Virus record (IMG/VR): IMGVR_UViG_3300020576_002722
Span: 1 to 64,000 of that record
Length of the DNA: 64,000 bases
Origin: a virus
Lineage: Duplodnaviria > Heunggongvirae > Uroviricota > Caudoviricetes
Strand: one strand, 5' to 3'
Position numbers and translations under genes: made by a program. The notes beneath the pieces were generated by a model. That model was not told where the DNA came from. It did not search any database and was given only the letters and a program-made list of their open reading frames with translations. This document shows, piece by piece, positions 17,576 to 60,749 of this stretch; the first letter of the stretch is position 1, and each line of letters starts with the position of its first letter.

Positions 17576-17794
17576 ATGAGCATCAACAACAAGATCCCAG
17601 GAAAGCAAGACTTCATCCGTGCCGGCATCAGCTGGGACCGGGTGGAGCTTGCACGTAAGGCGGTAGCCGAGTCCGAGGCGAAGCTCGCCGAAGTGAGGGC
17701 CGACGACAAGCTGTCCAAGGAAGAGAAGACGGCCAAGATCAAGGCCATCAAAGACGCCCACACCGAGTACATCCTTTCGATCCGGAACAAGTGA
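17576..17794 (+). CDS. small coiled-coil protein (72 aa)
   Basis: ATG (MSINNKIPGK...) lies 2 nt after the fibre stop. The rest of the track ORF upstream overlaps the fibre gene. Confidence 0.55.
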   Translation: MSINNKIPGKQDFIRAGISWDRVELARKAVAESEAKLAEVRADDKLSKEEKTAKIKAIKDAHTEYILSIRNK

Positions 17795-19095: not shown

Positions 19096-20075
19096 TGCGT
19101 GTATTGTACGGTGGCCTCTGCCCAGGACAGTCCACTGTGATGGTGTCCGTGGTACCGGCAAGGTCGCTCAGGATATCGTCAGGTGCCCAGATGTCGTACG
19201 GTTCCCCTACCGTCGGGTTGATAGTCCCGGTGCGTCAGCAGACATTCACGTTCGGAACGTACATGAAGGCAGCTGGCGCTCTTGATGTGAACGCGTTCTA
19301 CTTCGACTACACCGTGAGCCGAAGCAATGGATACGTATCCGTTCGTGCCGCCCCCGGCCCCCCGGCATCCCCTCCGGCGCTTCCCGAAAACTATCAGCCG
19401 ATCATCATTTCACTGATCAAGGATAGTACCGATCCTCGCTGGCTTGGTAACCACAACATCATACTGAGCTGTTCTTGCCGTAGCAATGTGCAGCCACTTG
19501 ACTACGACGTATACAGCAGGGCGTACGAGATACCTGGATTGCGTGCGCTTTTGGAGGATGGAAACTGGCACAGCATTGATATCGTCAGGTCCACGGTCAC
19601 TGTGAACAGCTTCGACTTCGCCGACTGGAAGGTTTACGTTGACGGGTCTCCAGTCGTGTTGAACGAGATCTACACGGTAGGGTCTGTCGACCTTCTGGTA
19701 GGATATACTAATGTTGCCGGAAACTTCGCCCCTAAACTCACGGCAGATGGACTCACCGGTGGACGCGATCTCCTATGGAAGAACACCTATTGGTGTACCG
19801 GTGCCTTGACACAGTCGCAGATCACCAACGTGGCCAGGACCGGATCTTGGAGCGGAGCGATAGTTGGCCTTCAGGCCATGTTCGGGTACGATCTTCCGGC
19901 AACATGCAGCTGGCCGCCCACGCTGCCGTACATGGGAGAGCGGTACAACCCGGCCATACCGAACGATCCGGCCGGAGGCGGCCTGATTCCAGGAGGAATG
20001 ACCCTGGTTCGATCTGGCCCGACCGGTAACGGGGAGTTCGTGAACGATGTTCCGTCAACCCTCCTGTTCCCGTAG
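19095..20075 (+). CDS. hypothetical structural protein, possibly a LamG/jelly-roll-like domain
   Basis: ATG (MRVLYGG...) overlaps the upstream stop (TGATG). The 5' extension in the track overlaps the previous gene. The domain guess is weak. Confidence 0.5.
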   Translation: MRVLYGGLCPGQSTVMVSVVPARSLRISSGAQMSYGSPTVGLIVPVRQQTFTFGTYMKAAGALDVNAFYFDYTVSRSNGYVSVRAAPGPPASPPALPENYQPIIISLIKDSTDPRWLGNHNIILSCSCRSNVQPLDYDVYSRAYEIPGLRALLEDGNWHSIDIVRSTVTVNSFDFADWKVYVDGSPVVLNEIYTVGSVDLLVGYTNVAGNFAPKLTADGLTGGRDLLWKNTYWCTGALTQSQITNVARTGSWSGAIVGLQAMFGYDLPATCSWPPTLPYMGERYNPAIPNDPAGGGLIPGGMTLVRSGPTGNGEFVNDVPSTLLFP

Positions 20076-20101
20076 AACATGTACAACCGGATGACAATCA
20101 G

Positions 20102-20111
20102 TACCTTCGCA
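20102..20111 (+). promoter_or_regulatory. -7-box-like promoter motif TACCTTCGCA (class II), 2 nt before the ATG
   Basis: The context AATCAGTACCTTCGCA matches AATCAGTAACTTCGCA at 14073-14088. Confidence 0.45.
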
Positions 20112-20113
20112 TA

Positions 20114-20407
20114 ATGGAAGTCACCGTAAGCACAGGCTACCTGACCGTCGATCAGAACCCAGGGGTGACAGCTCCTGTCGTGCTGAACGGGGGCACCATC
20201 ATAAGGTTCACTCCGGTCAACAGCAAGAAGTTCGGGGTCAGCCTTTCCGGGTACACATCAGTTGACGACTGGGAGATCGTGATATCCCCCAACGATCTGG
20301 CCATCGACAAGATCCGCCTCGGGGACGTGACGAACCAGGCTGGATGGACCAATGACCTTGCCGGCGCACAGCAGGCTGCCGCAGACCTTTCAGTAGCACT
20401 TCAATGA
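20114..20407 (+). CDS. small tail-associated protein, paralogous to the N-terminus of the next gene
   Basis: The 97-aa product aligns by eye with aa 1-110 of ORF 20409..21521 (MEVTVSTG.../MEVVVTTG..., ...GWTNDLAGAQQAAADLSVALQ / ...DWTNDLAGTIQAATDLSVAFQ). Confidence 0.6.
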   Translation: MEVTVSTGYLTVDQNPGVTAPVVLNGGTIIRFTPVNSKKFGVSLSGYTSVDDWEIVISPNDLAIDKIRLGDVTNQAGWTNDLAGAQQAAADLSVALQ

Positions 20408-20408
20408 C

Positions 20409-21521
20409 ATGGAAGTAGTAGTAACGACAGGCCAGGTAGCCATCTACGAGGACACGGTAGCGACCAGCGCACCGGTGATCCTGAACGGGAAGTGCATCAT
20501 CCGCATCGAGTCGATCGACGGGAACAAGTACCAGAACGGTGCGTCCGTTTCCGATCCAGCGCTTCCGTACGACGGAGCGCCGTATACCAGCAACCCGCAA
20601 TGGGTCATCGTGCTCGTGCAGAACGATCGCGCCATCGAGAAGCTGGAGATGGGCAAGATTACCAACCACCTGGGCGACTGGACCAACGACCTGGCTGGCA
20701 CCATTCAGGCAGCCACTGATCTCTCTGTCGCGTTCCAGTCCCCTGGAGGAGGTGGTGGCGGCATCGATACAATAGACGGTGGAACCACTGGATACTCATT
20801 CTCGGCTGGTCCAAACAGCGTTATGACCGGGTCTCCGGTCGTACCAATACCGTACGGACGAACGATATTCGTTGACAACGAATTAGGGTCTGATACCACT
20901 GGGACGCCATACCGATTCGACCTGCCTTATGCTACATTCGCAGCCGCCATCGAGGACGCCTCAAATGGTGACACTGTCGTTCTGCGCCCATCATGCTCGG
21001 ACACGATAGCTGACTCTGTTTCGTCTCCAGGAAGCCTCCATATCGTTATAGAACCAGGGATACATAACAGCTCCATCATCGTGGCTATCACAGAGAGTGC
21101 TACCACGTGGAGCATATACGGTCCAGGTTGTACGATAAACACTGTGACCATCAATGGAGGTTCGAGACTGATAATGACCGTCAGGGGCACGAGCAATGTT
21201 ACTATCCTGGGCTCGTCTATACTTGATCTATACGGAAACGTGGATGGGTACGTTGTCGTATCTGGAACGGTAACCCTGAACAATGGAGTAGCCGGTTCGG
21301 CTATCCAAATAAATGACGGGTCTACCACTACTTTGACCAACTACCACGCAGCGGGTGGCATCGACTGCCCCGGCATAGGCGTTAACGTAGATGCTCGTTC
21401 ATCCAGTACCACAGCCATCACTGGACCTGTCTCTATCAATGGCGACATGTTCACCATAGCATCAGGTGGGGCTGGCTCTGTGGCCACGCAGTCGGCTGAC
21501 GGAAGTTGGACTTGGGTATAA
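20409..21521 (+). CDS. tailspike-like protein (adaptor N-domain, Gly linker, right-handed beta-helix-like C-domain)
   Basis: A GGGGGG linker is followed by IFVDNELGSDTTGTPYRFDLPYATFAAAIEDASNGDTVVLRP, which is typical of the start of pectate-lyase-fold tailspikes. Repetitive short beta-strand motifs follow. Confidence 0.6.
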   Translation: MEVVVTTGQVAIYEDTVATSAPVILNGKCIIRIESIDGNKYQNGASVSDPALPYDGAPYTSNPQWVIVLVQNDRAIEKLEMGKITNHLGDWTNDLAGTIQAATDLSVAFQSPGGGGGGIDTIDGGTTGYSFSAGPNSVMTGSPVVPIPYGRTIFVDNELGSDTTGTPYRFDLPYATFAAAIEDASNGDTVVLRPSCSDTIADSVSSPGSLHIVIEPGIHNSSIIVAITESATTWSIYGPGCTINTVTINGGSRLIMTVRGTSNVTILGSSILDLYGNVDGYVVVSGTVTLNNGVAGSAIQINDGSTTTLTNYHAAGGIDCPGIGVNVDARSSSTTAITGPVSINGDMFTIASGGAGSVATQSADGSWTWV

Positions 21522-21543
21522 TTACAGCACCATCTATCGCAAC

Positions 21544-22017
21544 ATGAGCGTACGACGCATTGAACAGGTCATGATGCAGGTGTTTTCCTTTGGGGACAAC
21601 ACTGTATCCAAGGTGATCACTGTGATCCTGTCGGCGGCAGCTGGATTCATCGCCCCCATCTGGCCTTTCCTGGCCCTGTCGTTCGTGCTTTCCGGATTCG
21701 ACCTGTACACTGGTTGGCGCAAGAGTAAGAAGCTGACCGGATCATCAGTAACATCCAAGGGGCTCGGAGGAACAGTAGAGAAGATTGTCCTGTACAGTCT
21801 GGCCATCCTGCTGGCCGAGGGCGTGCGAGTGGTGTTCGGCCTGGATGACATTTGGGGTCTCAATAAGATGACCTACGTGGTGGCTGGACTGATCGCGTGG
21901 CGTGAGCTTCTGAGTTGTTTTGAGAACATCTCCATAGTGATAGGTTGGGACCTTGTCGGTGAGTTCAAGGAGGCTATAAGGAATGGCGTGGCATCCATCT
22001 TCAGGAGCAAGTCTTAG
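21544..22017 (+). CDS. holin (LL-H/holin_4-like)
   Basis: The start MSVRRIEQV is chosen after the upstream stop. There are several TM segments and the motif GFDLYTGWRKSKKLTGSSVTSKGLGGTVEKIVLY, which resembles the DxxTG...S...G..KK core of this holin family. Confidence 0.65.
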   Translation: MSVRRIEQVMMQVFSFGDNTVSKVITVILSAAAGFIAPIWPFLALSFVLSGFDLYTGWRKSKKLTGSSVTSKGLGGTVEKIVLYSLAILLAEGVRVVFGLDDIWGLNKMTYVVAGLIAWRELLSCFENISIVIGWDLVGEFKEAIRNGVASIFRSKS

Positions 22018-22543
22018 CGAACTCTTTGTGTAGCCTTTTGGCTGCATCAACGTATGCCTCATGAGCCTTTTGTGGATCGTCAAACACGCCCAGGTAGTAG
22101 TGCTTTTTGTTGGCTCCTATCTGGGCGACCCATTTGTTGCACTCCTTACTCCACGACACCCCTTTGAATCCGCTCTTGTTCCTGGAGTCCATGCTTCGAT
22201 TCATGTTGTTTTGACTCCTAGTAGCGAGCCTGAGATTGGACAGGGAGTTATTCCAGGGGTTATTGTCGATGTGATCAATGACCATTCCTTTGGGGATCAC
22301 CCTCCCCAGCATGGACCAGATGACATGATGCGCCGCCATCCTTTTGTAGTCAACACATACGGTTACCTGAAGGGCGGATCCATCTGGTTTTGTGCTTTTG
22401 CTTCCGGCCACCTTTCCGAGGTCGCGAACAAGGAACGTGTTGTAAGCCTGATTGCTTCCAAAGGACTCTCTTGGGCGCATCTTGAACGTAAGGTCCCCAG
22501 AGATGGGATCATAGTTGAATCGGTCAGAAAGGTTGGTGGTCAT
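22001..22543 (-). CDS. HNH-AP2 homing endonuclease
   Basis: Only the C-terminal 180 aa of track ORF 22001..23650 are credible. They carry IDHIDNNPWNNSLSNLRLATRSQN (HNH_3) followed by GFKGVSWSKECNKWVAQIGANKKHYYLGVFDDPQKAHEAYVDAAKRLHKEFA (AP2). The locus has lower GC and is convergent with the holin gene, overlapping its last 17 nt. Confidence 0.85.
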   Translation of the reverse strand: MTTNLSDRFNYDPISGDLTFKMRPRESFGSNQAYNTFLVRDLGKVAGSKSTKPDGSALQVTVCVDYKRMAAHHVIWSMLGRVIPKGMVIDHIDNNPWNNSLSNLRLATRSQNNMNRSMDSRNKSGFKGVSWSKECNKWVAQIGANKKHYYLGVFDDPQKAHEAYVDAAKRLHKEFAKTCS

Positions 22544-22565
22544 GCTTGTTTGTAATTGCAATATG

Positions 22566-22573
22566 CAAACATA
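22566..22573 (-). promoter_or_regulatory. TAnnTTTG -7 box (TATGTTTG) for the HNH-AP2 gene
   Basis: The sense strand reads CGTATGTTTGCATATTGCAATTACAAACAAGC-ATG, with 22 nt to the start codon. Confidence 0.45.
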
Positions 22574-22765
22574 CGACAAAGTCTTGACGCCACCCCAGCA
22601 AGAAGGCTTGATTTGCATGTTCCGGAAATCGTTGTACATTCGCCGCCGTGGAGCGTAGGTCTGTCTACCATCCCGAGGGGAGAAAGTCTTCGTCAGCCCT
22701 GTCGGTAGGTCTTCGGCAGTACCACCACATCGAGCCCGCTCCCATTCCAACGAAACCACCCACAC

Positions 22766-23770
22766 ATGGCAGGAAAGCAAAGCGTTGCAGGGCAGATCGT
22801 AGAGCAGTATTGCAAGGACTTCCCGAAGATCAACAACGGAAGGCTGGCAAGAAAGATCGCAGAGGAACACCCACAGCTGGGGACCAGTGAGAAGATCCGA
22901 TGGCAGGTAAGGTTCTACCGTCTCCAGGCCGGGAAGACGCACCGCGACACCAGGAAGAAGAACGGTCACGCTCACATGGAGAAGGAGTCCGCTTCGAGCA
23001 ATGTGTACGAGCTTCCTGAGCCACGCATCATTGAGCGGGTCCCGTTCAAGATGCCAAGCTCGATCCGCAAGCTGCTTGTGTTCTCGGACATCCACGTACC
23101 GTACCACGACATGGACGTGGTCAAGCGTGGCATCGAGTTCGGCAAGAGCGAGGGGTGCGATGGGATTCTGCTGAACGGCGACACAATGGATATGTGTGGG
23201 CCATCGTCGCATGATCCGGATCCACGCAGCCTGGACCTTCCGTCCGAGCTGGAGGATGGACGCCAGTTCCTCAGGCACCTGAGGAATAAGTTCCCTAACA
23301 TCCCCATCTACTTCAAGGACGGGAATCACGAGAATAGGCTGGAGCGATATCTGATCAAGCAGGCACCCGTCCTGCTTGGCGTGGATGATTTCGAGCTGCG
23401 CAGCCTGCTCCGCATGGGCGAAGTGGGCATCCAGTGGATCGGCGACAAGCGCCTGTTCCTGGCCGGCAAGCTGGTCATCATACATGGCCACGAGTACAAG
23501 GGCGCGGGTGGTGTCAATCCGGCCAGGTGGCTCTCGCTGCGCACGTCCGGATCGATCATGTGTGGTCACTTCCACCGAAGCTCCTCGCACTTCTCCAAGT
23601 CCATCATGGACGAGATCTCTGGTGCCTGGTCTACCGGATGCATGTGCCACATGAGTCCCGACTACTCACCGTACAACCAGTGGAACCACGGGTTCGCGAT
23701 GGTCCACGTCAACAAGGACAAGACCTTCGAGGTTGAGAACAAGATGATGATCGGTGGCAAGGTACGATGA
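22766..23770 (+). CDS. calcineurin-like metallophosphoesterase
   Basis: The motifs appear in canonical order: FSDIHVPYHD, NGDTMD, GNHENR, IIHGHE, GHFH. Confidence 0.85.
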   Translation: MAGKQSVAGQIVEQYCKDFPKINNGRLARKIAEEHPQLGTSEKIRWQVRFYRLQAGKTHRDTRKKNGHAHMEKESASSNVYELPEPRIIERVPFKMPSSIRKLLVFSDIHVPYHDMDVVKRGIEFGKSEGCDGILLNGDTMDMCGPSSHDPDPRSLDLPSELEDGRQFLRHLRNKFPNIPIYFKDGNHENRLERYLIKQAPVLLGVDDFELRSLLRMGEVGIQWIGDKRLFLAGKLVIIHGHEYKGAGGVNPARWLSLRTSGSIMCGHFHRSSSHFSKSIMDEISGAWSTGCMCHMSPDYSPYNQWNHGFAMVHVNKDKTFEVENKMMIGGKVR

Positions 23771-24294
23771 TCGAGAAGCTGCTGGAGATGGCCGTCGAGT
23801 TCGCCGAGAGGCTGACGCCTGTGTACTTCGTCAAGGAGTACCAGCGAGGGGTCATGTTCCGTGGCGGCAGGTTTAAGGGAGAGATCACGCCAGGCACCCA
23901 CTTCAAGTGGCCGATATTCGATGACATCGAAGTGTTCCTGGTGGCCACTACAACGATGGCTCTTCCAGCGCAGAGCGTCACCACCCGTGACGGCCGCAAT
24001 GTAGTGATCAAGTCCAGGATCAAGTACAGGGTAAGCAACGTCAAGGTGTTCGGTGTCGAGGTGGCCGACGCGCTCGATGCACTCAGCGACATGGTGTGCG
24101 GGATCCAGTTCGACCTGATCCGATCGATGACATGGGAGGAGTCGTGCCTGGCCAACCTGGACGAGGTGATCACAGCCGACGCCAAGAAGGAGGCCAAGAA
24201 GTGGGGCATCACCATCGAGAAGGTGACCGTGACCGACTACTCCGAGATGCGATCGATACGCCTGTTCAACGAGGGCGGCAAGGTGACCGACTAA
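23767..24294 (+). CDS. SPFH/band-7 (prohibitin/HflK-like) domain protein
   Basis: ATGA overlap with the upstream gene. The sequence VKEYQRGVMFRGGRF...PGTHFKWPIFDDIEVF...TRDGRNVVIKSRIKYRV is the typical SPFH core. Confidence 0.8.
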   Translation: MIEKLLEMAVEFAERLTPVYFVKEYQRGVMFRGGRFKGEITPGTHFKWPIFDDIEVFLVATTTMALPAQSVTTRDGRNVVIKSRIKYRVSNVKVFGVEVADALDALSDMVCGIQFDLIRSMTWEESCLANLDEVITADAKKEAKKWGITIEKVTVTDYSEMRSIRLFNEGGKVTD

Positions 24295-24334
24295 CGATTC
24301 GTCACAAAGTACTTGACGTATCAGGAATCTCTCT

Positions 24335-24342
24335 TACATTTG
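24335..24342 (+). promoter_or_regulatory. class I -7 box TACATTTG (context CTTACATTTGGGGC) upstream of the tRNA cluster
   Basis: The same extended motif TTAC(A/C)TTTG(C/G)GG occurs at 45075(-), 50895(-), 51567(+), 52061(+) and 54108(+). This copy lies 37 nt before the first tRNA-like gene. Confidence 0.5.
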
Positions 24343-24378
24343 GGGCGTCATTGTCAATGGGGGTTGGGTTTTGATGGA

Positions 24379-24448
24379 GGCCGTGTAGCTCAGTTGGTAG
24401 AGCAGCCCCGACCGGGGTTGGTCGCAGGTTCGAGTCCTGCCACGGGTT
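24379..24448 (+). tRNA. tRNA-like gene with a defective anticodon arm (pseudo-tRNA or anticodon-less tRNA mimic)
   Basis: Parse: GGCCGTG-TA-GCTC-AGTTGGTA-GAGC-A-GCCCC-GACC-GGGGT-TGGTC-GCAGG-TTCGAGT-CCTGC-CACGGGT-T. The D- and T-arms are canonical. The anticodon arm is 3 nt short (4-nt or at best 6-nt loop), so no 7-nt anticodon loop can be drawn. There is a G2:G71 mismatch. Confidence 0.45.
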
Positions 24449-24570
24449 CAGGGAGTTCTTTTCTTCATGGTAGCAAAGGCGGGGTGATCACCGCCGAACT
24501 GGTAGTCGGAAGGCCGCAAGCCGGAGACGTTGTACCACATACGGCCTGTTATAGGACTTGGGGCCGTGCC

Positions 24571-24642
24571 GGACGGGTAGCTCAGATGGTAGAGCAGCCG
24601 CCTGAAAAGCGGTGGCCGGTCGTTCGAGTCGACCCCTGTCCA
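24571..24642 (+). tRNA. tRNA-Phe: tRNA-Phe (anticodon GAA)
   Basis: Cloverleaf drawn by hand: GGACGGG-TA-GCTC-AGATGGTA-GAGC-A-GCCGC-CTGAAAA-GCGGT-GGCC-GGTCG-TTCGAGT-CGACC-CCTGTCC-A. No encoded CCA. Confidence 0.9.
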
Positions 24643-24757
24643 CTATATGGCGGCGTAGCTAACCGCAAAGCTGGCAGATGTTGGGATGAACGCATATACT
24701 CCCGGCCCACGTTCAGAGATGCCACACAGCGCTGCTTTATTGACTCGGGCGCGAAAT

Positions 24758-24829
24758 TGGACAGTAGCACAGCGGTAGTGCAGCTCCCTGTTAAGGAGCA
24801 GGTCGGTGGTTCGATCCCATCCTGTTCAG
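24758..24829 (+). tRNA. tRNA-Asn: tRNA-Asn (anticodon GTT)
   Basis: TGGACAG-TA-GCAC-AGCGGTA-GTGC-A-GCTCC-CTGTTAA-GGAGC-AGGTC-GGTGG-TTCGATC-CCATC-CTGTTCA-G. Confidence 0.9.
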
Positions 24830-25069
24830 CAAACAAGCGTGTGCCCTGGCAAGGGTTTTGCTCCACGCCCGAAGTCACACACCCTTCAAGTGTGGCCTAT
24901 GTTTATGGGTGACGCGCCGGAGAGACGGCACCATTAGTAGCCAATGGTCCTGACGGGTAAAGCCGTGGGTAAAGCTACCATCCCGTGGGTGGAAACACGT
25001 GCAATGTGAACCGGCACATGACAGTGTATAAAACAACGGTGACTTGGTGCTTCAGAGAAAGTACCGCCT

Positions 25070-25141
25070 GCGCGGATGGTGTAATTGGTAGCATGTCAGC
25101 CTTCCAAGCTGAGGGTGCGGGTTCAAGTCCCGCTCTGCGCT
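25070..25141 (+). tRNA. tRNA-Gly: tRNA-Gly (anticodon TCC)
   Basis: GCGCGGA-TG-GTGT-AATTGGTA-GCAT-G-TCAGC-CTTCCAA-GCTGA-GGGT-GCGGG-TTCAAGT-CCCGC-TCTGCGC-T. The discriminator T at 25141 is followed by C, then the ATG of the next gene at 25143. Confidence 0.9.
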
Positions 25142-25142
25142 C

Positions 25143-25535
25143 ATGGTGCGAATCGTATCCCATACCAGGATCAAGAAGCTCAGTGGCAAGGGCTACTGGA
25201 TATCGAAGATCTGTGTGCTCGATGAGCGCGGAAACACCGTGTTCGATTGCTACGCCCTGGAGGATGCGGCTGAGTGCCCTCCGGTAGGTACATGGGAGCT
25301 TGTCCTGGAGTACTCGCCCAAGTTCGGCAGGAAGCTGTACGAGATGAAGGGGATACCTGGCAGGGCCGAGATCAAGTACCACGTCGGAAACACCTTGGCC
25401 GACACCGACGGGTGCCCGCTACTCGGAGCCAACTACATCGGCAACACTGTCAATGGATCACGCCTAGCGCTTGATCGATTCATGAGGGCCATGCGTGGCG
25501 TCGACTGCACGACGGTCACCATATCGATCCAATAG
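25143..25535 (+). CDS. DUF5675-family protein (possible YkuD-like cell-wall enzyme)
   Basis: 130 aa. The sequence GTWELVLEYSPKFGRKLYEMKGIPGRAEIKYHVGNTLADTDGCPLLG matches my memory of the DUF5675 signature. Its H-x-G-N...D-G-C spacing resembles the H...GC catalytic motif of L,D-transpeptidase folds, which is inference. Confidence 0.7.
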   Translation: MVRIVSHTRIKKLSGKGYWISKICVLDERGNTVFDCYALEDAAECPPVGTWELVLEYSPKFGRKLYEMKGIPGRAEIKYHVGNTLADTDGCPLLGANYIGNTVNGSRLALDRFMRAMRGVDCTTVTISIQ

Positions 25536-25538
25536 TCG

Positions 25539-25548
25539 TACCTTCGCA
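25539..25548 (+). promoter_or_regulatory. class II motif TACCTTCGCA
   Basis: Third copy of the decamer. It lies 3 nt after the DUF5675 stop and 24 nt before the hairpin at 25572. Confidence 0.35.
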
Positions 25549-25571
25549 CTCGTGTTCATGTGTGGTCAAGG

Positions 25572-25604
25572 CTCCAGGTCTGAAAGGATCTGGAGTTCTT
25601 GTTT
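25572..25604 (+). terminator. stem-loop plus T-tract (rho-independent terminator or 5'-UTR hairpin)
   Basis: CTCCAGGTC-TGAAAG-GATCTGGAG (9 bp including one G.T) is followed by TTCTTGTTT. The role is ambiguous because a promoter-like decamer lies just upstream. Confidence 0.5.
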
Positions 25605-26354
25605 ATGTGGGCACCAATGCCTATGTTTGACACCCCTATGAGGATCCTGTTCGCTGCCCTGATGCTCGTATCCTTGTTGGTACGCGGGCAATCCACATGC
25701 TCGACGGCAGCTCAGTTCTCGTACGGATGCGAGAACTTCCCACCACTGTATCCGGTTCAGGTGACCAGGTGCTACACCTTCCAGACGGGAGGATCGTCGG
25801 CCTACTACAACTTCTTGGTCACGGCCAACTGCTCCAACGACGTCATCTATTCCTTGTACAACCAAGAGTGCGATGTGCTGATCGACCAGAACATCTCCGG
25901 CGTCTTCAGCCTGATTCCGAATCAGGTGTACGTCGTGTGTGTGGACGTGGCCTGTACCAGCTCGGGCGGTATCAGGGCCATCTGTCCGTACGAGGAGTTC
26001 ACTCTTCCGATCGAGCTGCTCCGCTTCGATGCGCGTGCTGCGCAGGACGGTGTATCGGTGTCGTGGTCCACGGCCACCGAGCAGAACTCCTGGTACTTCA
26101 CCCTGTCCAGGTCCAATGACACGGAGCATTGGAGCCAAGAGGCCCAGATCCAGGCGGCCGGCAACAGCCAGAACACCATCAGGTACCAGTTCGTTGACCA
26201 TGAGCCCGCACTCGGCATCAGCTACTACAAGCTGGAGAGCGTTGACATCGACGGCAGCGCCCGCTTCATCGGCGTGGCCTCGGCCATCATGGTGTCGGGT
26301 GGAATTACATCATCCATTGATCCATACGACCTGATCGGTCGCCAAGTGAAATGA
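25605..26354 (+). CDS. secreted protein with signal peptide and a Bacteroidota-type C-terminal beta-sandwich/sorting-like domain
   Basis: The signal peptide MRILFAALMLVSLLVRGQS suggests the more likely start at 25638. The C-terminal region ELLRFDARAAQDGVSVSWSTATEQNSWYFTLSRSNDTEHW...GNSQNTIRYQFVDHEPALGISYYKLESVDIDG resembles a domain common in secreted Bacteroidota proteins. Confidence 0.65.
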   Translation: MWAPMPMFDTPMRILFAALMLVSLLVRGQSTCSTAAQFSYGCENFPPLYPVQVTRCYTFQTGGSSAYYNFLVTANCSNDVIYSLYNQECDVLIDQNISGVFSLIPNQVYVVCVDVACTSSGGIRAICPYEEFTLPIELLRFDARAAQDGVSVSWSTATEQNSWYFTLSRSNDTEHWSQEAQIQAAGNSQNTIRYQFVDHEPALGISYYKLESVDIDGSARFIGVASAIMVSGGITSSIDPYDLIGRQVK

Positions 26355-26824
26355 AGAACGACCTATTCCCAATGCCCAAGTGGTTCTTTCCGATACTCGT
26401 CACTGCGCTCATTGTGGTGCTGTCCGGGCTTCTCACTTCCTGCTCCCCAGAGAAGAAGCTGAACAGGCTTCTGATGAAGTACCCCGAGCTGCGCACCACC
26501 GACACGATCCATGACACCGTCGAGGCGATCGTGTCGTACGTACACACGGACACCGTATTCAAGCCGACCACGGGTGACACCGTTCGCCTGAGCGATGGCC
26601 GCCTGCGCGTGAAGTACGTGCGGATGCCGGGTGACACCGTATACCTGGCCGGAGAGTGCCTGGCTGACACCGTGCGCGTTCCGGTGGAGACCATCGTCGA
26701 ACGCGTGGCCCCCAAGGAGTTCGTAGACCGGACCCCCTGGTGGATCTGGCTGATCATCGCTGTGCTCGCCGCATTGGTAGCGCTGCCAAGGGTAACACAA
26801 TCGATCGCTATCCTGAGGAAGTGA
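26351..26824 (+). CDS. lipoprotein with C-terminal TM anchor (unimolecular-spanin-like architecture)
   Basis: ATGA overlap with the upstream gene. It has an N-terminal signal plus lipobox (VLSGLLTSC), a beta-rich middle region, and a C-terminal TM segment (WWIWLIIAVLAALVALP). This is the same topology as the T1 gp11-type u-spanin. Confidence 0.6.
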   Translation: MKNDLFPMPKWFFPILVTALIVVLSGLLTSCSPEKKLNRLLMKYPELRTTDTIHDTVEAIVSYVHTDTVFKPTTGDTVRLSDGRLRVKYVRMPGDTVYLAGECLADTVRVPVETIVERVAPKEFVDRTPWWIWLIIAVLAALVALPRVTQSIAILRK

Positions 26825-26914
26825 GAGGATACGTAGCGCGGATACAGTACACGGTATCCGAACGGATGGGCGAGTTCCCTCCACTGGACAAACAAGAACC
26901 ATACACATACGAAC

Positions 26915-27133
26915 ATGGCAAGACCAAGGCAGGAGGCATCGACATCACAGTCGAGCCGGGAGAAGATGGACAGGAGCATGACGCTCGTGTTCAGGAACGG
27001 AGCGAGGCATGTAGTCCACCCGACCAAGGCGTTCGAGGGTGACTGGAGGGGCCTGGCCGACTACATCGCCGGTGGCGAGCCGTACCAGATCGAGCGCCAA
27101 GTGAAACACGAAACACCTGAACCGAAGCAATGA
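26915..27133 (+). CDS. hypothetical protein (start uncertain)
   Basis: The frame is fixed by the ATGA overlap with the next gene at 27130. Alternative starts are at 26966 and 26978. Confidence 0.4.
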   Translation: MARPRQEASTSQSSREKMDRSMTLVFRNGARHVVHPTKAFEGDWRGLADYIAGGEPYQIERQVKHETPEPKQ

Positions 27134-27474
27134 GCACACAGATGGAGTTCCCTGGAGAGGGGCAATTCAAGGCCGAAATTCCCAAGGACTTCGACCCCAA
27201 GCAGATGATCGCTGACGCGGTCGATAAGCTGGAGGAGGAGATCCAACTCCCAAGGTCATTCCCAGGGATCCTGATGGTGGACCACAAGTTCACCGATGAC
27301 CCGGCCGTCAAGTACGAGCGTGCTCACGAGAAGAGGCGACTGAAGGCGTACCTCAAGGGACACCAGCGGTTCCAGCACGGGTGGCAGCCGGCCTATCCGA
27401 TCGGCCGCAGGCCCATCATGTTCCCCATGTACGAGGGACCCAAGAACGACAAACCAACACAAGCAAAAGCATGA
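27130..27474 (+). CDS. hypothetical protein (114 aa)
   Basis: ORF with ATGA coupling at both ends. Confidence 0.65.
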   Translation: MSTQMEFPGEGQFKAEIPKDFDPKQMIADAVDKLEEEIQLPRSFPGILMVDHKFTDDPAVKYERAHEKRRLKAYLKGHQRFQHGWQPAYPIGRRPIMFPMYEGPKNDKPTQAKA

Positions 27475-27692
27475 GAGAGCTGACCATTGGAGAGAAGCGG
27501 GTTCGCATTGAGTTCAACCCGAGCAACCAGGATAATGTCTTCCGGGTGAAGACCAAGATCGCAGAGCTGATCAATGAAGCAGAGGCCATCAAGGCTACGG
27601 TAACTGATCCTGAGGCAAAGCGTCTCGCAGCTCTCGCCTCCACTGATCTTGAGAACGCGGCCATGTGGCTGGTGAAAGCACTTACGGCATGA
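27471..27692 (+). CDS. small helical phage protein (73 aa)
   Basis: The start MRELTIGEKR overlaps the upstream stop (ATGA). The C-terminus LENAAMWLVKALTA resembles a widespread small phage protein family of unknown function, recalled from memory only. Confidence 0.55.
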   Translation: MRELTIGEKRVRIEFNPSNQDNVFRVKTKIAELINEAEAIKATVTDPEAKRLAALASTDLENAAMWLVKALTA

Positions 27693-28117
27693 GCAACGGA
27701 AGGATCATCGCCATCGATTTCGATGGCACATGCGTAACGCATGAGTACCCGAAGGTCGGAAAGGACATCGGCGCTGTGCCCGTCCTGAAGGCGCTGGTAG
27801 AGGCTGGACATGCCCTGATCCTGTACACGATGCGATCAGGTCAGACGCTCAATGATGCAGCCGACTGGTTCCGAAGGAACGGGATAGGGCTGACGGCCGT
27901 AAACGTGAACCCGTTCCAGTCTACCTGGTCCAGCTCGCCCAAGGTGTACGCTCAGTTGTACATCGATGACGCAGGGTTCGGGGCACCACTGGTGCTTCCG
28001 GATGGAGAACAGCGTCCGCACATTGATTGGGCGTTGGCTGAGAACTGGCTACGCCTGGCCGGGTACCTTCCCCAAGTCAAGGAAGCCAAGCAAGAAGAAC
28101 AAACCACCGAAGTATGA
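27689..28117 (+). CDS. HAD-superfamily phosphatase
   Basis: The start MSNGRIIAIDFDGTCV carries HAD motif I (DxDGT). ATGA coupling at both ends. Confidence 0.7.
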   Translation: MSNGRIIAIDFDGTCVTHEYPKVGKDIGAVPVLKALVEAGHALILYTMRSGQTLNDAADWFRRNGIGLTAVNVNPFQSTWSSSPKVYAQLYIDDAGFGAPLVLPDGEQRPHIDWALAENWLRLAGYLPQVKEAKQEEQTTEV

Positions 28118-30618
28118 TGAAGAAACTGTTACTGATCCTGTCACTGCTGGTCACCTCACTGTGCCCCGCCCAATACCCGGCGCAGACCGCGTCGGTACCC
28201 ATCTCTGCGGTGGCCAACGTGAGTCCCGCCAAGATCACGTTGACGTGGACCGCGTTCTCCGGGACGACCGGGTTCACCCTGTACCGCAAGACCAAGGCGC
28301 AGACCACCTGGACCCAGATCGCTACCCCGGCCAGCAATGCCACTACGTATGAGGACGCCACCGCAGTGGTCGGCACCTATTACGAGTACAAGCTGGTACG
28401 AACGGCGTCGGCCGGTACGGGTTACGGTTACATCGCCGCCGGGATCACGCTTCCTGTGGTCGACAGCCGTGGCAAGATGGTTCTCCTGGTGGCCGACAAC
28501 ATGACCACGCCGTTGGCAACTCCGCTATCGCAGCTTGTCGCTGACCTTCGCGGTGACGGATGGGTGGTACTGAGGCACGACGTCAGCACGAGCGCGTCAC
28601 CAACCACGATCAAGGCCGTGATCCAGTCCGACTACAACGCGGATCCAACGAACGTGAAGGCGGTGTTCATCTTCGGGCACGTCCCGGTACCCTACTCCGG
28701 CAACATCAACCCGGACGGGCACGGCAACCACCAGGGCGCTTGGCCCTGCGACGGCTACTACGGTGACATGGATGGAGTGTGGACCGACAGCACGGTCAAC
28801 AACACGTCGTCCAGCGCTGACGGAACCAGGAACGACAATGTACCGGGTGACGGCAAGTTCGATCAGAGCAGCTACCCGAGCGCACTTGAACTCCAGGTGG
28901 GTCGCGTTGACCTGTACAACATGGAGTCGTTCTCGTTCTACGCTGGACTCAGCGAGACGCAGCTGCTGACCAACTACCTGACCAAGCTGCACAACTTCAA
29001 GATCAAGCAGTTCACTCCGACGTTCAGGGGTGGCGTGTTCGACAACTTCGAGGACGTGTCGCAGCCATTGCTAGCTGGCGGATACCGCAGTGTGTTCTCC
29101 AATGTGGGCCCATCCAATACCACCGACTGGAACGGTAACGGTTCACCGTACAGCTCCTACATCAACGGGCAGAGCTACCTGTGGACGGCGACCGCCGGCG
29201 GTGGACAGTTCACCAGCTCGCAGAACGTGACCAGCACAGGTGAGCTGGCTCAGTCGGTGGTCAACGGTGCCATCTTCAACCAGATGATCGGCAGCTACTT
29301 CGGCGACTGGGACTGCATGAACAACTTCCTCAGGGCACCCTTGTGCAGCGGCAACGGTCTCACCAACTGCTACAACGGGCTCCCGGCCTTCTTCTGGTTA
29401 CACCACATGGGCATGGGCGACAATATCGGGTACGGTACCCTGGTCTCCATGAACAACGTGGCCACTACTGGGACCTATCAGCCACAGGGACCAGCCTACC
29501 AGGGGGTGAGCGCCGGCAATAACCGGGTGAACATGGGCCTCATGGGGGACCCCAGCCTCCGCCAGATCTCCGTGGCACCACCTTCCAACCTGGCCATCAC
29601 CAACTCAGGAGGGTTCGCCTCGTGGTCTTGGACGGCGGCAAGCGGATCACCGCTCGGCTACCACGTATACGACCTGGGTACCGGATCTACTGCACCGGTG
29701 AGGCTTACGACGGATCCAGTGAATGCCACCAGCTGGAGCCCTGGCACCGTCCCTTTCGTCGCGGCCCGTCAGTACATGGTACGAGCGGTCGTCCTCACGA
29801 CCGGGGCCACCGGCACTTACTACAACATGTCCCTGGGGGCACTGGGGACATCGGCATCTACTCCGACCATCCTTGTCAGCCCGCGTGCATTCCTGGAGGG
29901 ACCATACGTCAGCGGCGTAGGCACAATGTCCGACGGGCTCCGCACCCTGTCCACGTTTCCCCTCAGCGATCCATATCCAGCGCTCGGCTACGTACACGTT
30001 GGGACCGGCGCTACTGGAACCATCAACGCTTCGGCTCTCACTGTTACCGGCAACAACGCCATCGTTGACTGGGTTGTCGTTGAGATACGATCCAACGCTT
30101 CCCCGTATGCTGTCGTTGCAAGCAAGAGTGTCCTCGTCCAGCGCGACGGTGACGTTGTGGATCGGGATGGTACCTCGGCGGTATCGTTCCAGGTCGCGGC
30201 GGCTACATATCGGGTTGCGGTGAGGCATCGGAACCACCTGGGTATCATGTCTGGTGCCGGTATCGCGCTCACCACGACGACCACTGCCGTCAACTTCACG
30301 TCGACCAACACATCGATGTATGGAACCAGCCCGCGCAAGCAGATCATTGGATCATTCACCACCTGGGTCATGTACGCCGGCGATGTGAACTTCAACCGCC
30401 AGATCAAGTACGTGGGATCGGCCAACGACAACGACCCGATCCTCGTGGCCGTGGGTGGAACCACACCGAACAACACGATCACCAACACGTACAGCGGTGC
30501 CGACACGAACATGGACGGCCTGATCAAGTACACGGGCAGCCTGAACGATCGCGACATCGTCCTGGTGAACGTTGGCGGAACGACACCGAACGCAGTGCGT
30601 AACGCGCAGTTACCGTAA
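28114..30618 (+). CDS. large secreted protein with an FN3-like domain and C-terminal Asp-rich (calcium-binding/dockerin-like) repeats
   Basis: Signal peptide MMKKLLLILSLLVTSLCPAQ. The FN3-like segment is PAKITLTWTAFSGTTGFTLYRKTKAQTTW...YYEYKLVR. The C-terminal repeats are GDVNFNRQIKYVGSANDNDPILVAVGGTTPNN and GADTNMDGLIKYTGSLNDRDIVLVNVGGTTPNA. Confidence 0.8.
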   Translation: MMKKLLLILSLLVTSLCPAQYPAQTASVPISAVANVSPAKITLTWTAFSGTTGFTLYRKTKAQTTWTQIATPASNATTYEDATAVVGTYYEYKLVRTASAGTGYGYIAAGITLPVVDSRGKMVLLVADNMTTPLATPLSQLVADLRGDGWVVLRHDVSTSASPTTIKAVIQSDYNADPTNVKAVFIFGHVPVPYSGNINPDGHGNHQGAWPCDGYYGDMDGVWTDSTVNNTSSSADGTRNDNVPGDGKFDQSSYPSALELQVGRVDLYNMESFSFYAGLSETQLLTNYLTKLHNFKIKQFTPTFRGGVFDNFEDVSQPLLAGGYRSVFSNVGPSNTTDWNGNGSPYSSYINGQSYLWTATAGGGQFTSSQNVTSTGELAQSVVNGAIFNQMIGSYFGDWDCMNNFLRAPLCSGNGLTNCYNGLPAFFWLHHMGMGDNIGYGTLVSMNNVATTGTYQPQGPAYQGVSAGNNRVNMGLMGDPSLRQISVAPPSNLAITNSGGFASWSWTAASGSPLGYHVYDLGTGSTAPVRLTTDPVNATSWSPGTVPFVAARQYMVRAVVLTTGATGTYYNMSLGALGTSASTPTILVSPRAFLEGPYVSGVGTMSDGLRTLSTFPLSDPYPALGYVHVGTGATGTINASALTVTGNNAIVDWVVVEIRSNASPYAVVASKSVLVQRDGDVVDRDGTSAVSFQVAAATYRVAVRHRNHLGIMSGAGIALTTTTTAVNFTSTNTSMYGTSPRKQIIGSFTTWVMYAGDVNFNRQIKYVGSANDNDPILVAVGGTTPNNTITNTYSGADTNMDGLIKYTGSLNDRDIVLVNVGGTTPNAVRNAQLP

Positions 30619-30640
30619 CCAGATAGGAGGCCGGTCAATG

Positions 30641-30676
30641 AAAGGGGCTAAGGAGGTTGCACTCCGAGGCCCCTTT
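30641..30676. terminator. long-loop hairpin AAAGGGGC...GCCCCTTT after the secreted-protein gene
   Basis: 8-bp stem with a 20-nt loop, followed by CGATTT. A weak terminator candidate. Confidence 0.35.
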
Positions 30677-30694
30677 CGATTTACCTGGAATACG

Positions 30695-30702
30695 TATCTT
30701 TG
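30695..30702 (+). promoter_or_regulatory. TAnnTTTG -7 box (TATCTTTG) for the HNH gene
   Basis: It lies 7 nt upstream of the ATG at 30710, in a low-GC patch. Confidence 0.4.
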
Positions 30703-30709
30703 ATTCCAA

Positions 30710-31105
30710 ATGGATATCAACTGTACTAAGTGTGGTTCCCTGATCAGGGCCGACAACAGAAGGTCAAAGAGTCGCTGGTGCAAGGAGTGTCACAAGGAGT
30801 ACGACAGAGCCAGGTATGCGCAGAACGCAGACTCAAGAAAGGCAGCGATCAAGGCACAACGCATATCTGTTCAAGAGTTTGTAGACGAGATCAAGAGAAC
30901 GTCTCCATGCACTGACTGCGGGGGATATTTTCATCCGGCCGTAATGGAATACGATCATCTGCCAGGAAGCAAGAAGACGGAGACTCCGTCAAACCTTGCC
31001 AGGACAGGAAGGAAGAACAGGTTCATTGAAGAGATCAAGGGGTGCGAACTGGTGTGCGCAAACTGCCACAGGATGAGGACCGTTCTACGCAGGAGGAAGC
31101 GCTAG
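30710..31105 (+). CDS. HNH endonuclease (free-standing)
   Basis: There are Cys pairs at the N-terminus (CTKCG...CKECH) and the motifs YDHLPGSKK...ELVCANCH. Local GC is lower. Confidence 0.8.
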   Translation: MDINCTKCGSLIRADNRRSKSRWCKECHKEYDRARYAQNADSRKAAIKAQRISVQEFVDEIKRTSPCTDCGGYFHPAVMEYDHLPGSKKTETPSNLARTGRKNRFIEEIKGCELVCANCHRMRTVLRRRKR

Positions 31106-31581
31106 AGCTTCAGTCCGGCCAGGTCGAAGATACCGATGCACTCCAGTAGCATCTGGTGCCCTCTGGTAGTGAGCGAGCAGTCGGACACGTCGCCGTTGTG
31201 CTCGATGAATCCTTCGCGATCGAGCATGGCCAGGATCGTATCCAGGTGGCCGGATGGGAACATCCTTCGGAGCACGCCGTCCCACTTGATCCAGTGACAG
31301 AACCCCTGCTGGGGGTCGTCGCGCTCGTCGATGATGTAGAGGGCTGACGCGATGTGCGACAGGACTACCATAGAGGAGTCGCCGGCCGCCATACCCATCA
31401 GCCTGATCATGGCCAGCGGCTCATTGATGAACTGGTCAGACTCGTTGCCGTACAGCTCGATCTGTTCAGACAAGGTCCACAGGTCCGGATAGAGCGGATG
31501 CGGGATGATCAGCGGCTGCGACTCGATCTCTATGATGTTGAGCTGGTCCTCAAGCAGGGATACGGTATCTGACATGGCCAT
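31102..31581 (-). CDS. hypothetical protein (159 aa)
   Basis: Clean ORF. Its stop overlaps the convergent HNH stop (CTAG). Confidence 0.6.
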   Translation of the reverse strand: MAMSDTVSLLEDQLNIIEIESQPLIIPHPLYPDLWTLSEQIELYGNESDQFINEPLAMIRLMGMAAGDSSMVVLSHIASALYIIDERDDPQQGFCHWIKWDGVLRRMFPSGHLDTILAMLDREGFIEHNGDVSDCSLTTRGHQMLLECIGIFDLAGLKL

Positions 31582-31606
31582 CTATTCGATACAGCTAAGG
31601 TACGGA

Positions 31607-31990
31607 TCAGCGCCCGGATCGAGGGTAGAAGACCCCTTTCATGTAGTCGTTCACGTCTGTCATGAACTCCTCTAGGGAGCGGCATTCATAGACTATCCAT
31701 CCAGCCTCTGAGAACCTGATCTGCATCTCTTTCTGTGACTCGGATAGCTTGCCTTTGTCAGACTTCATCTCGATGGCCATGCCGCAGACGTGCGTATCTC
31801 CATACGTCCTGGGATGGCACACCAGGATATCAGGGACTCCGGCCAGTACCCCCATGTCCTTCCACAATTTCCCCATGTGTGGACTCCCGGCATCTCTGCC
31901 ATTGGGAGGGTGGAACGCCAGGACGTTAGGGTACTGTAACCGGAGCCACTTGATACACGCCTTCTGGAGCGCTTGTTCTGGACGCTTCAT
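31607..31990 (-). CDS. VRR-NUC (PD-(D/E)xK) nuclease
   Basis: The start MKRPEQALQKACIKWL has an ATGA overlap with the RNA ligase stop. The catalytic motifs are GVPDILV ... GMAIEMKSDKGKLSESQ. Confidence 0.8.
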   Translation of the reverse strand: MKRPEQALQKACIKWLRLQYPNVLAFHPPNGRDAGSPHMGKLWKDMGVLAGVPDILVCHPRTYGDTHVCGMAIEMKSDKGKLSESQKEMQIRFSEAGWIVYECRSLEEFMTDVNDYMKGVFYPRSGR

Positions 31991-33063
31991 TCCTCGTACT
32001 TGAGAAGGAACTGAGGATTGATCGCCTTGAACGATATGCGTCCACGGGTCACCGTCTTGCCGGTGATGAAGGTCTCGGTCATCTCTTCCAGGCTGCGCAC
32101 CACGATCCCCTCGGCCCATACGTCGGGGTTGATGGCGCTCTTGCGGGTGGCGAAACCAACCAGCTCGTCAACACTGAGGGCACCAAGGGTGAGGCAGTCG
32201 ATGTACGGGACCATCTTCAGGTCCATCGATCCGAATGCGACTGCGGCATCGCTAGGCAGGTACGGCTTGCCGGCATCGATGTCGAACACGTTGAAGAAGA
32301 GAACCTTGCGGCCGGTCAGCTTGTACTTGTTGCCCTGGATCCCTTCGCCGATCAGCTCGCCCTGGATGGCGATGTTCTTGCCGTAGTCGCGGAGCTTCTG
32401 CTCGACGTTCATCTCTCGGGCGTACTGCCAGAACGCATTCCTTTCGTCCTCCTTCAGCTCCAGGTTGCGCGAGCAGACCCCGAACTCCCCGTTGTACAGG
32501 TAGAAGGTAGCGCTGCTGCCGTCCATCTTCTCGCGGATCTCCACCTGCGCTGCGGCGTACTTGTCCAGGATGCCTGGCATGTTCTGGATCCGCTCCTCGT
32601 CCGTCTTGTGGATGAAGGATGGGAAGTAGCCGCGCACGGTACCGCCCAGGCAGGCCGGGATGGCGGGCTCGTACTTGATGATGCCGAGCAGCTCTGTCAC
32701 ATCGTACCCTTCTGCTGACAAGCCCAAGGCTGCGAACAGCTCGTGCTCGGCCGTGATAACATCGGCAAGGATCGACACCGGCATCATCAGGCCCTGGGAT
32801 ACCTGTCCCTTGAGTTTGATGGTGCGCACACGCATGTGGCGTGGCTTCATGAACTCGAACTCTGGTCGGTCAGGAAGGATGCTGTCCGGCTCTATGAATA
32901 CGATCGAATCGCCAATTCTGTGTCCGGCATCGTTCCTGATCACGCACTTCCACCCCAATACGCTGGCTACGGACACTTCGTCGGCTCCGGGTATTGGCTG
33001 GATGTCAGAGATCGTCTGTATGCTTGCAAGTTTTCTGCTCATGATTTTGTGTTTGAGAGCCAT
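31987..33063 (-). CDS. ATP-dependent RNA ligase (DRB0094/Rnl5-like)
   Basis: The N-terminal module is RKLASIQTISDIQPIPGADEVSVASVLGWKCVIR. Nucleotidyl-transferase motif I is EKMDGSS (KxDG). Downstream motifs are EGIVVR and ISFKAINPQF. Confidence 0.85.
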   Translation of the reverse strand: MALKHKIMSRKLASIQTISDIQPIPGADEVSVASVLGWKCVIRNDAGHRIGDSIVFIEPDSILPDRPEFEFMKPRHMRVRTIKLKGQVSQGLMMPVSILADVITAEHELFAALGLSAEGYDVTELLGIIKYEPAIPACLGGTVRGYFPSFIHKTDEERIQNMPGILDKYAAAQVEIREKMDGSSATFYLYNGEFGVCSRNLELKEDERNAFWQYAREMNVEQKLRDYGKNIAIQGELIGEGIQGNKYKLTGRKVLFFNVFDIDAGKPYLPSDAAVAFGSMDLKMVPYIDCLTLGALSVDELVGFATRKSAINPDVWAEGIVVRSLEEMTETFITGKTVTRGRISFKAINPQFLLKYEE

Positions 33064-60508: not shown

Positions 60509-60749
60509 TCTCGCAAGCTATGACCTGCGTATTGTCCAGGGTCTCGCAGTGCCGGCATCCGGATGTCGTGGACTCGATCCACTCGTGGCCGTTGGTACAC
60601 TGGAACACCTTGATCGATACGGTTCGATCGTGGAAGTGATAGCCGTCGTCATCGTTGATCCTGAGGAGGGGCCCCTCTTGCTCGGTCTCCTCCATCAACT
60701 GTGGCCTGCTTCTCAGACCATCCCTCTTGCACACCGGACATTCGCTCAT
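60483..60749 (-). CDS. small zinc-ribbon protein (88 aa)
   Basis: CPVC...C..GH...CRHC. ATGA overlap with the macrodomain stop. Confidence 0.55.
   Translation of the reverse strand: MSECPVCKRDGLRSRPQLMEETEQEGPLLRINDDDGYHFHDRTVSIKVFQCTNGHEWIESTTSGCRHCETLDNTQVIACENESQQPQH

Follow-up and report, generated by a model that had tools for sequence, protein, structure and literature searches.

A DUF5675 protein and a u-spanin-like lipoprotein as candidate parts of a dispersed phage lysis system

How does a tailed phage lyse its host when a holin gene can be recognized in its DNA and a classical endolysin gene cannot? The question is raised by a 64-kb stretch of viral DNA (57.6% G+C; IMG/VR record IMGVR_UViG_3300020576_002722, positions 1 to 64,000), the whole of which is called the window here. 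An earlier note on this DNA had put forward two candidates for the missing parts: a protein of the DUF5675 family, encoded at 25143-25535 on the plus strand, as a YkuD-like enzyme acting on the cell wall, and a lipoprotein, encoded at 26351-26824 on the same strand, as a unimolecular spanin (u-spanin). Open reading frame (ORF) and Pfam checks found both genes, as well as the holin gene (21544-22017, plus strand), at these coordinates. Judging from sequence, we lean toward a scattered three-part lysis system composed of the holin, a DUF5675 peptidase, and a u-spanin-like lipoprotein.

The premise that the window holds no classical endolysin stood up. Pfam scans of 9 neighboring and 72 further window ORFs, together with PHROG scans of those 72, returned no amidase, lysozyme, glycosidase, M15/M23, CHAP/NlpC, or transglycosylase family, and many of the scanned ORFs match no family at all. 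A degraded Amidase_2 gene was considered and rejected, as the best tblastn match in the window to the amidase of related phages has an E value of 0.37. The window is part of a genome with a probable full size of about 78 kb, and the 6.6 kb past its 3' end, reached through contig L017, encode a portal protein and a probable terminase, with no lysin.

The DUF5675 protein and the YkuD fold

The DUF5675 protein of the window has 130 aa and belongs to Pfam family PF18925 (E value, 5.5e-18; 65.3 bits, with a gathering cut-off of 26.7) and to phrog_1501. It contains no hydrophobic segment and hence neither a signal peptide nor a signal-arrest-release (SAR) sequence. The family is large, with 1,587 homologs gathered by an iterated search and 2,735 clusters at 50% identity gathered by a full HMMER scan (E values up to 1e-3). 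In an alignment of 108 homologs, all of which also match PF18925 and whose mean column identity is 22%, S58, F61, H80, and C91 alone are invariant, so that the family has exactly one invariant His and one invariant Cys; G90 is at least 90% conserved. The two residues are joined in the window protein by the motif H80-V-G-N-T-L-A-D-T-D-G-C91, or H-x-G-N-x3-D-x-D-G-C, which corrects the x5 spacing given earlier. The motif residues kept across the family are H80, N83, G90, and C91, and a D-x-D element was rejected as a family feature, neither Asp being conserved in the alignment. We propose H80 and C91 as the predicted catalytic dyad.

The AlphaFold2 model of the protein, with a predicted local distance difference test score (pLDDT) of 95, has the beta-sandwich fold of YkuD, and the proposed dyad sits in a layout of strand-His, loop, and Gly-Cys-strand, as it does in YkuD. 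The spacing from His to Cys is 11 residues, compared with 16 in Bacillus subtilis YkuD, whose sequence was verified. YkuD-fold proteins named in the comparison include the L,D-transpeptidases Ldtfm, LdtMt2, and LdtMt5, YkuD itself, the Lpp-cleaving DpaA, Bdellovibrio Bd1075, and Tlde1a; among the structure matches in BFVD are crAss proteins annotated as "L,D-carboxypeptidase/transpeptidase" and a cyanophage "Endolysin." Weak echoes also exist at the sequence level, with Tlde1_dom matched by 16 of the 108 members (best E value, 0.0029, all of these matches being below threshold) and YkuD (PF03734) by 2 of them (E value, 0.05).

The likeness could in principle be accidental, with DUF5675 being a nonenzymatic beta-sandwich, a structural or binding module, in which the Cys/His motif is incidental. 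Several searches are in keeping with this: the Foldseek comparison that the earlier note had suggested gave no link to YkuD when run against PDB; a profile search of PDB sequences retrieved no YkuD chain and only chance matches to prolyl-tRNA synthetase; and hhalign found no alignment between the family profile and B. subtilis YkuD. The occurrence of DUF5675 domains inside proteins of 868 to 1251 aa also speaks for it. Yet coincidence would have to account for a single His and a single Cys kept invariant among sequences this divergent and for the local strand-His and Gly-Cys-strand pattern that YkuD shares, and the same conclusion was reached independently in crAss annotations and in a 2026 preprint. 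We regard a chance resemblance as highly improbable and the DUF5675 protein as, very probably, a wall peptidase of the YkuD fold.

The large phage proteins just mentioned, all BFVD matches, are A0A1L7N1E2 (Ralstonia phage RP31, 1251 aa), A0A8S5VTR0 (868 aa), and A0A7H0XAI4 (1210 aa). Their DUF5675-fold domains may be virion-associated wall-degrading modules.

Comparison with characterized proteins of the fold helps to define what the enzyme might do. Pgp2 of Campylobacter jejuni (PDB 6XJ7) and Csd6 of Helicobacter pylori (PDB 4XZZ) are L,D-carboxypeptidases of MEROPS family C82, which hydrolyze and do not form cross-links; they share with DUF5675 the single conserved His and the Gly-Cys that opens the next strand. 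They differ from it in that no sequence similarity is detectable and in that DUF5675 is a bare 130-aa domain, phage encoded and without a signal peptide, an NTF2-like domain, or any other accessory domain. Tlde1 (Tlde1_dom; PDB 7UMA) is delivered from outside by type VI secretion and is paired with an immunity protein, unlike DUF5675.

The assignment has been made before, contrary to the novelty claimed for it in the earlier note. In GenBank, DUF5675 proteins of many crAss-like phages are annotated as "L,D-carboxypeptidase/transpeptidase," "putative transpeptidase," or "transpeptidase catalytic domain protein." The one from cr112_1 (QOR59246.1) is of the same Pfam family by tblastn and has the same predicted fold; its label derives from phiCrAss001 and is likewise a functional prediction. 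MEROPS family C82 comprises the L,D-transpeptidases. A 2026 preprint, drawing the same comparison, proposes a "C82-like" family for the DUF5675 lysin LysPd160 and reports conserved catalytic residues; it does not state that the DUF5675 lysin was among the proteins expressed (bioRxiv 10.64898/2026.04.11.717860). The window protein is about 28 to 35% identical to the crAss-like and LysPd160 proteins, and its gene lies farther from the holin gene than theirs, after a tRNA cluster.

DUF5675 as the probable endolysin

If DUF5675 is a wall enzyme, is it the endolysin? Gene content in relatives of the window bears directly on this question. In five related contigs (L001 to L005), an Amidase_2 gene, whose product has an SAR-like N terminus, lies 1.5 to 2 kb upstream of an ortholog of the window's lipoprotein gene (52 to 56% identity), and DUF5675 is absent; three of them (L001 to L003) also share the window's metallophosphoesterase (45% identity), the gene for which there comes after Amidase_2. 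In the window and in contigs L008 and L013 to L016, DUF5675 is present, no amidase is found in the stretches covered, and the lipoprotein gene follows DUF5675 by 0.8 kb. As read from gene content, this is a natural swap of Amidase_2 and DUF5675 between syntenic relatives.

Other phages tell a similar story. The crAss-like phage cr112_1 has, in order, a lysis regulator, a holin, a GIY-YIG endonuclease, and the DUF5675 gene, and so resembles the window in having a homing endonuclease between holin and DUF5675. In Cellulophaga phage Ingeline_1, transmembrane (TM) proteins gp35 to gp37 are followed by DUF5675 (gp38) and by a protein with a lipobox and a C-terminal TM helix (gp39), and these components, dispersed in the window, are contiguous. 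In the complete 28.7-kb genome of phi39:1, DUF5675 comes behind the tail genes and is flanked by TM proteins; of the 48 coding sequences annotated there, 47 were scanned with Pfam, and no other lysin family was found. In Campylobacter CJIE4 prophages DUF5675 precedes a protein that combines a TM helix with a coiled coil, and it is found even in Microviridae genomes of 5 to 7 kb, which have hardly any accessory genes. On this evidence DUF5675 is probably the endolysin of the phage, and its occurrence in microviruses suggests an enzymatic lysis route in these single-stranded DNA phages. One microvirus copy (L009, PQ006782.1, 4216-4812) is part of a protein of 198 aa, extended at its N terminus by about 85 aa.

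A different reading would keep the peptidoglycan-directed chemistry of a YkuD-fold enzyme and give up the role in lysis. DUF5675 would then modify stem peptides in the course of infection, through L,D-carboxypeptidase activity or a Tlde1-like exchange of D-amino acids, and could serve to keep out superinfecting phages, alter the shape of the cell, or prepare the wall, with the true endolysin being an unrecognized protein or one encoded in a part of the genome outside the window. The best structural matches, Pgp2, Csd6, and Bd1075, suit such a role in being shape-determining trimming enzymes and not lysins, and so does the position of the gene, 3.1 kb past the holin gene, right after tRNA genes, and perhaps with a terminator of its own. 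There is room for another lysin, too, among the many family-less ORFs of the window and in some 7 kb, out of a genome of probably 78 kb, that lie outside the stretches inspected and which by their position between portal and tail genes should be head module. Set against this, a protein without a signal peptide has the wall out of its reach before the holin fires, and DUF5675 takes the place of Amidase_2 in otherwise syntenic relatives. The complete genome of phi39:1 has no other candidate for a wall enzyme in the 47 coding sequences scanned, microviruses of 5 to 7 kb carry DUF5675, and the gene lies directly between holin-like and spanin-like genes in Ingeline_1 and next to the holin in cr112_1. 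We consider a function apart from lysis rather improbable.

Even so, the trimming activity of the nearest structural matches, the dispersal of the genes, and the uninspected 7 kb all weigh against DUF5675 as the endolysin, and there are further points on the same side. The Arg that stands two residues past the catalytic Cys in YkuD (G-C-[IV]-R) is absent from DUF5675, where the window protein reads G-C-P-L-L-G and the family consensus G-C-I-x-x-G. Simple L,D-carboxypeptidase trimming alone would not dissolve the sacculus. Finally, a search of the literature found no experiment on any DUF5675 protein.

Returning to DUF5675 as the endolysin, a mechanism can be outlined. At the end of infection the holin would permeabilize the inner membrane, and the cytoplasmic DUF5675 protein, which for lack of a signal sequence should need the holin to get to the wall, would reach the murein through the holin lesions. 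Cys91, activated by His80, would attack the carbonyl at the L-center of the third stem residue, meso-diaminopimelic acid (mDAP), and cleave its bond to D-Ala4, by L,D-carboxypeptidase or L,D-endopeptidase chemistry like that of Csd6, Pgp2, and Tlde1. Lysis would require that the mDAP-D-Ala bond be cleaved in cross-linked donor stems: where D-Ala4 is still cross-linked, the cut would sever the cross-link and weaken the sacculus.

The Amidase_2-type relatives show an arrangement of their own. At 5411-6494 in L001 and 1299-2387 in L004, the amidase has a weakly hydrophobic, SAR-like N terminus, and upstream of it both contigs encode a protein of 78 to 97 aa that has a TM helix and a coiled coil; in L001, two single-TM proteins of about 42 aa lie between that protein and the amidase. 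The layout points to a cassette in the style of a pinholin and SAR endolysin.

The lipoprotein as a candidate u-spanin

The protein proposed to deal with the outer membrane has 157 aa. It carries a lipobox, L-T-S-C31, preceded by basic residues and an 18-residue hydrophobic core, a middle part predicted to be beta-rich, and a C-terminal hydrophobic segment at 131-149 (about 129-149; Kyte-Doolittle value, 2.1) that is followed by a basic tail of R and K. The topology claimed in the earlier note, a lipobox with a single C-terminal TM helix, is there, and this is the sole coding ORF of the window to combine the two. A six-frame lipobox scan found this gene alone among coding ORFs of the window and no pair of i-spanin and o-spanin. 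A lipobox ORF at 61983-62288 (minus strand) was rejected as an o-spanin, being internal to a 183-aa gene between the halves of NAMPT and 35 kb away.

The architecture is kept in homologs. We collected 23 of them, with identities of 31 to 93%, and about 20 retain the topology. Nearly all full-length ones keep the signal peptide and the lipobox Cys, in lipobox-like contexts, and the homologs go on to D-T-rich strand motifs and a P-W-W motif before the TM helix and the basic C terminus. A second Cys, the periplasmic C103, is invariant among them. Gene neighborhoods are informative as well. In the distant relatives L006 and L007, the lipoprotein gene overlaps the 3' end of a Phage_holin_4_1 gene (24 bits), a holin of the same Pfam family as that of the window; homolog P0143 is one whose gene overlaps in this way. 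As described above, the orthologs elsewhere lie downstream of Amidase_2 or of DUF5675.

The closest parallel is T1 gp11, which the lipoprotein resembles in its N-terminal lipoprotein signal, its C-terminal TM helix, a periplasmic domain of about 90 to 100 residues that a low-confidence model predicts to be beta-rich, and its association with holin and endolysin genes; it departs from the gp11 type in that the gene in the window adjoins neither holin nor endolysin. From topology and gene context we favor, if with some reservation, the assignment of the lipoprotein as a u-spanin. It fits a new u-spanin-like sequence family with an invariant periplasmic Cys. The protein would be held in the outer membrane by the lipidated Cys31 and in the inner membrane by the C-terminal helix, possibly as a dimer linked by a disulfide through Cys103, and once the murein is gone it would collapse and fuse or disrupt the two membranes, as T1 gp11 does.

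Could the lipoprotein instead serve in superinfection exclusion or receptor masking, or be retained in the inner membrane as a regulator of the holin, with the outer membrane disrupted in another way? No sequence relation ties it to any known spanin, and its gene is translationally coupled to that of a secreted protein, p251. Moreover, the TM and coiled-coil protein that L001 and L004 encode upstream of the amidase is i-spanin-like. In the structural model, AlphaFold2 places a short helix, five strands at 51-116, and a helix at 130-156 with low confidence (pLDDT, 66; predicted template modeling score [pTM], 0.28). The invariant Cys is itself unusual, as none of the 58 u-spanins catalogued in 13 families has a Cys in its periplasmic part (Kongari et al. 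2018, PMC6139136). But an N-terminal lipobox joined to a TM helix at the C terminus and to a basic tail in the cytoplasm is the signature of a u-spanin, and here it persists down to 31% identity. The periplasmic span comprises about 97 residues and is predicted by the low-confidence model to be beta-rich, in agreement with what is reported of gp11 (PMC6139136); the family stays near holin or endolysin genes in four genomic backgrounds; the window offers no alternative spanin pair; and an analogous, unrelated protein follows DUF5675 in Ingeline_1. A role other than that of a spanin is, in our view, unlikely, if by no means negligible.

For the u-spanin assignment, too, there are points on the debit side: the low-confidence model and the periplasmic Cys, to which must be added that the lipoprotein has no PHROG or Pfam family and that tblastn against 50,697 phage records gave zero matches at an E value of 0.1. 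The lipoprotein sorting rules of the presumed Bacteroidota host also differ from those of Escherichia coli.

The Ingeline_1 protein, gp39 (L021, 4303-4776), is annotated as hypothetical and stands directly after DUF5675. Its 157 aa include a TTSC that resembles a lipobox, a hydrophobic helix at the C terminus, and a single periplasmic Cys (C93), and no homology to the window lipoprotein is detectable; it is an unannotated u-spanin candidate.

A u-spanin from a Bacteroidota phage, the second novelty claimed in the earlier note, would not be the first. Phages of Cellulophaga, Flavobacterium, and Riemerella, which we take to be Bacteroidota phages, are already represented by predicted u-spanins in the catalogue of 2018. 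It includes the groups of Cellulophaga phi13:2, phi12:1, and phi10:1, Flavobacterium phages 11b and FCL-2, and Riemerella phage RAP44 (PMC6139136). With the fold of DUF5675 annotated and u-spanins of such phages catalogued, the novelty of the two proposals is low, and the finding is a correct inference that rediscovers existing predictions. New here are the swap of Amidase_2 and DUF5675, the argument from the complete genome of phi39:1, and the Cys-containing u-spanin-like family linked to holin genes.

A bolder reading would join these elements. DUF5675 would be a minimal, Arg-less branch of the YkuD fold, an L,D-endopeptidase that cuts cross-links and, swapping freely with Amidase_2, serves as the one lysin in many phages, among them siphoviruses of Bacteroidota, crAss-like phages, prophages of Campylobacter and Helicobacter, and even microviruses of 5 to 7 kb; the lipoprotein would found the first disulfide-dependent class of u-spanins. 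We offer this combination tentatively, as a possibility that falls short of an even chance. If DUF5675 is an endolysin, a function would be given to a large family that Pfam still labels as being of unknown function, phage lysins would gain a class with cysteine-based L,D-peptidase chemistry, and lysis without a recognizable lysin would be explained in some microviruses, in crAss-like phages, and in many phages of Bacteroidota. With the lipoprotein, the u-spanins, which are poorly understood, would gain a family that contains a Cys. The value of the work is confirmatory and practical rather than conceptually new, and the Amidase_2/DUF5675 swap provides a ready-made genetic test.

Neighboring genes, host, and lineage

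The holin candidate has 157 aa and 3 to 4 hydrophobic helices and matches Phage_holin_4_1 (PF05105; E value, 4.6e-6; 27.1 bits, with a gathering cut-off of 22.2), a family recorded as well for the identical genes of L015 and L016. Its 3' end is overlapped by a convergent gene (22001-22543, minus strand) for a 180-aa protein like HNH-AP2 homing endonucleases; the record of Pfam families HNH_3 and AP2 (weak) rests on the identical gene in L013 to L016. Next come genes for a 334-aa metallophosphoesterase (22766-23770, plus strand; phrog_221, E value, 9e-45; Pfam Metallophos, E value, 1.2e-5) and a 175-aa SPFH/Band7 protein (23767-24294, plus strand; Pfam Band_7, E value, 7.6e-19), the latter also preceding DUF5675 in L008. 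The metallophosphoesterase is found in the lysis region of both the DUF5675-type and the Amidase_2-type lineages, and the SPFH/Band7 gene accompanies it in the DUF5675 type alone. Four tRNA genes follow (24379-25142, plus strand; ARAGORN), one without an assigned isotype and the others Phe-GAA, Asn-GTT, and Gly-TCC, the last of which ends one base ahead of the DUF5675 start codon. The earlier note had the holin separated from the other candidates by the HNH-AP2 gene, two enzymes, and the tRNA genes; the gene order is as it described, but the SPFH/Band7 protein is not an enzyme.

Between DUF5675 and the lipoprotein gene lies the gene for p251 (25623-26354, plus strand), a Cys-rich secreted protein with a Sec signal, of 243 or 251 aa, with its start at 25623 or 25638. 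Its stop codon and the start codon of the lipoprotein gene share bases in the sequence ATGA. Scans against Pfam and PHROG assigned p251 to no family. An ortholog with 47% identity occupies the same position in L008, where it was inherited together with DUF5675, and the C-terminal domain is common to uncultured phage records of 460 to 640 kb (LR756500 to LR756504).

Hints as to host and transcription come from the motif TAnnTTTG, a -7 promoter element of Bacteroidota type, which is present in 16 copies where 9.4 would be expected (a count of 16 is reached in 3 of 100 shuffles), often 8 to 45 nt upstream of gene starts; examples are at 22566 (minus strand), 24335, 25622, 30695, 51567, 53593, and 54108. 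This excess weakly suggests a host of the Bacteroidota type. One copy lies just upstream of the HNH-AP2 gene (22566-22573, minus strand), one upstream of the tRNA cluster (24335-24342, plus strand), and one at the start region of p251 (25622-25629, plus strand), and between DUF5675 and p251 there is a terminator-like hairpin (25570-25597, plus strand) with a 12-bp stem and a T-rich tail. From these positions two transcription units are weakly suggested, one of the tRNA genes and DUF5675 and the other of p251 and the lipoprotein; the hairpin contributes little as a terminator, since such sites in the region number 5 against 4.3 expected, no excess over chance.

The phage itself appears not to be an isolated case. 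Megablast of window positions 20000-32000 against phage records gave zero matches, and the exact DUF5675 protein is present on 22 metagenomic contigs with a gene order identical to that of the window, which indicates a real and widespread phage lineage. Contig L014, 99.7% identical, has a tail-fiber-like gene as a single ORF of 762 aa; in the window a frame change at about 19032 divides it into two ORFs (17791-19095 and 19017-20075, plus strand), the break being a one-base indel, a sequencing error, or a real frameshift.

Two further loci of the window may bear on defense. Four genes downstream of the lipoprotein gene, at 27471-27692 (plus strand), a 73-aa gene matches the Acb2/Tad1 hairpin domain (Pfam E value in the ORF scan, 1.3e-9; PF24729 on record for the identical gene in L014), that of a nucleotide sponge against Thoeris and the cyclic oligonucleotide-based antiphage signaling system (CBASS). 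At 60746-64000 (minus strand) is a nicotinamide adenine dinucleotide (NAD) salvage block with a gene like that for ribose-phosphate pyrophosphokinase, a NAMPT gene in parts of 276 aa (62625-63452) and 261 aa (61204-61986), split by the 183-aa ORF (61986-62534), and a Macro-domain gene (60746-61204), all on the minus strand; the block resembles an NAD+ reconstitution pathway with which phages counter host defense.

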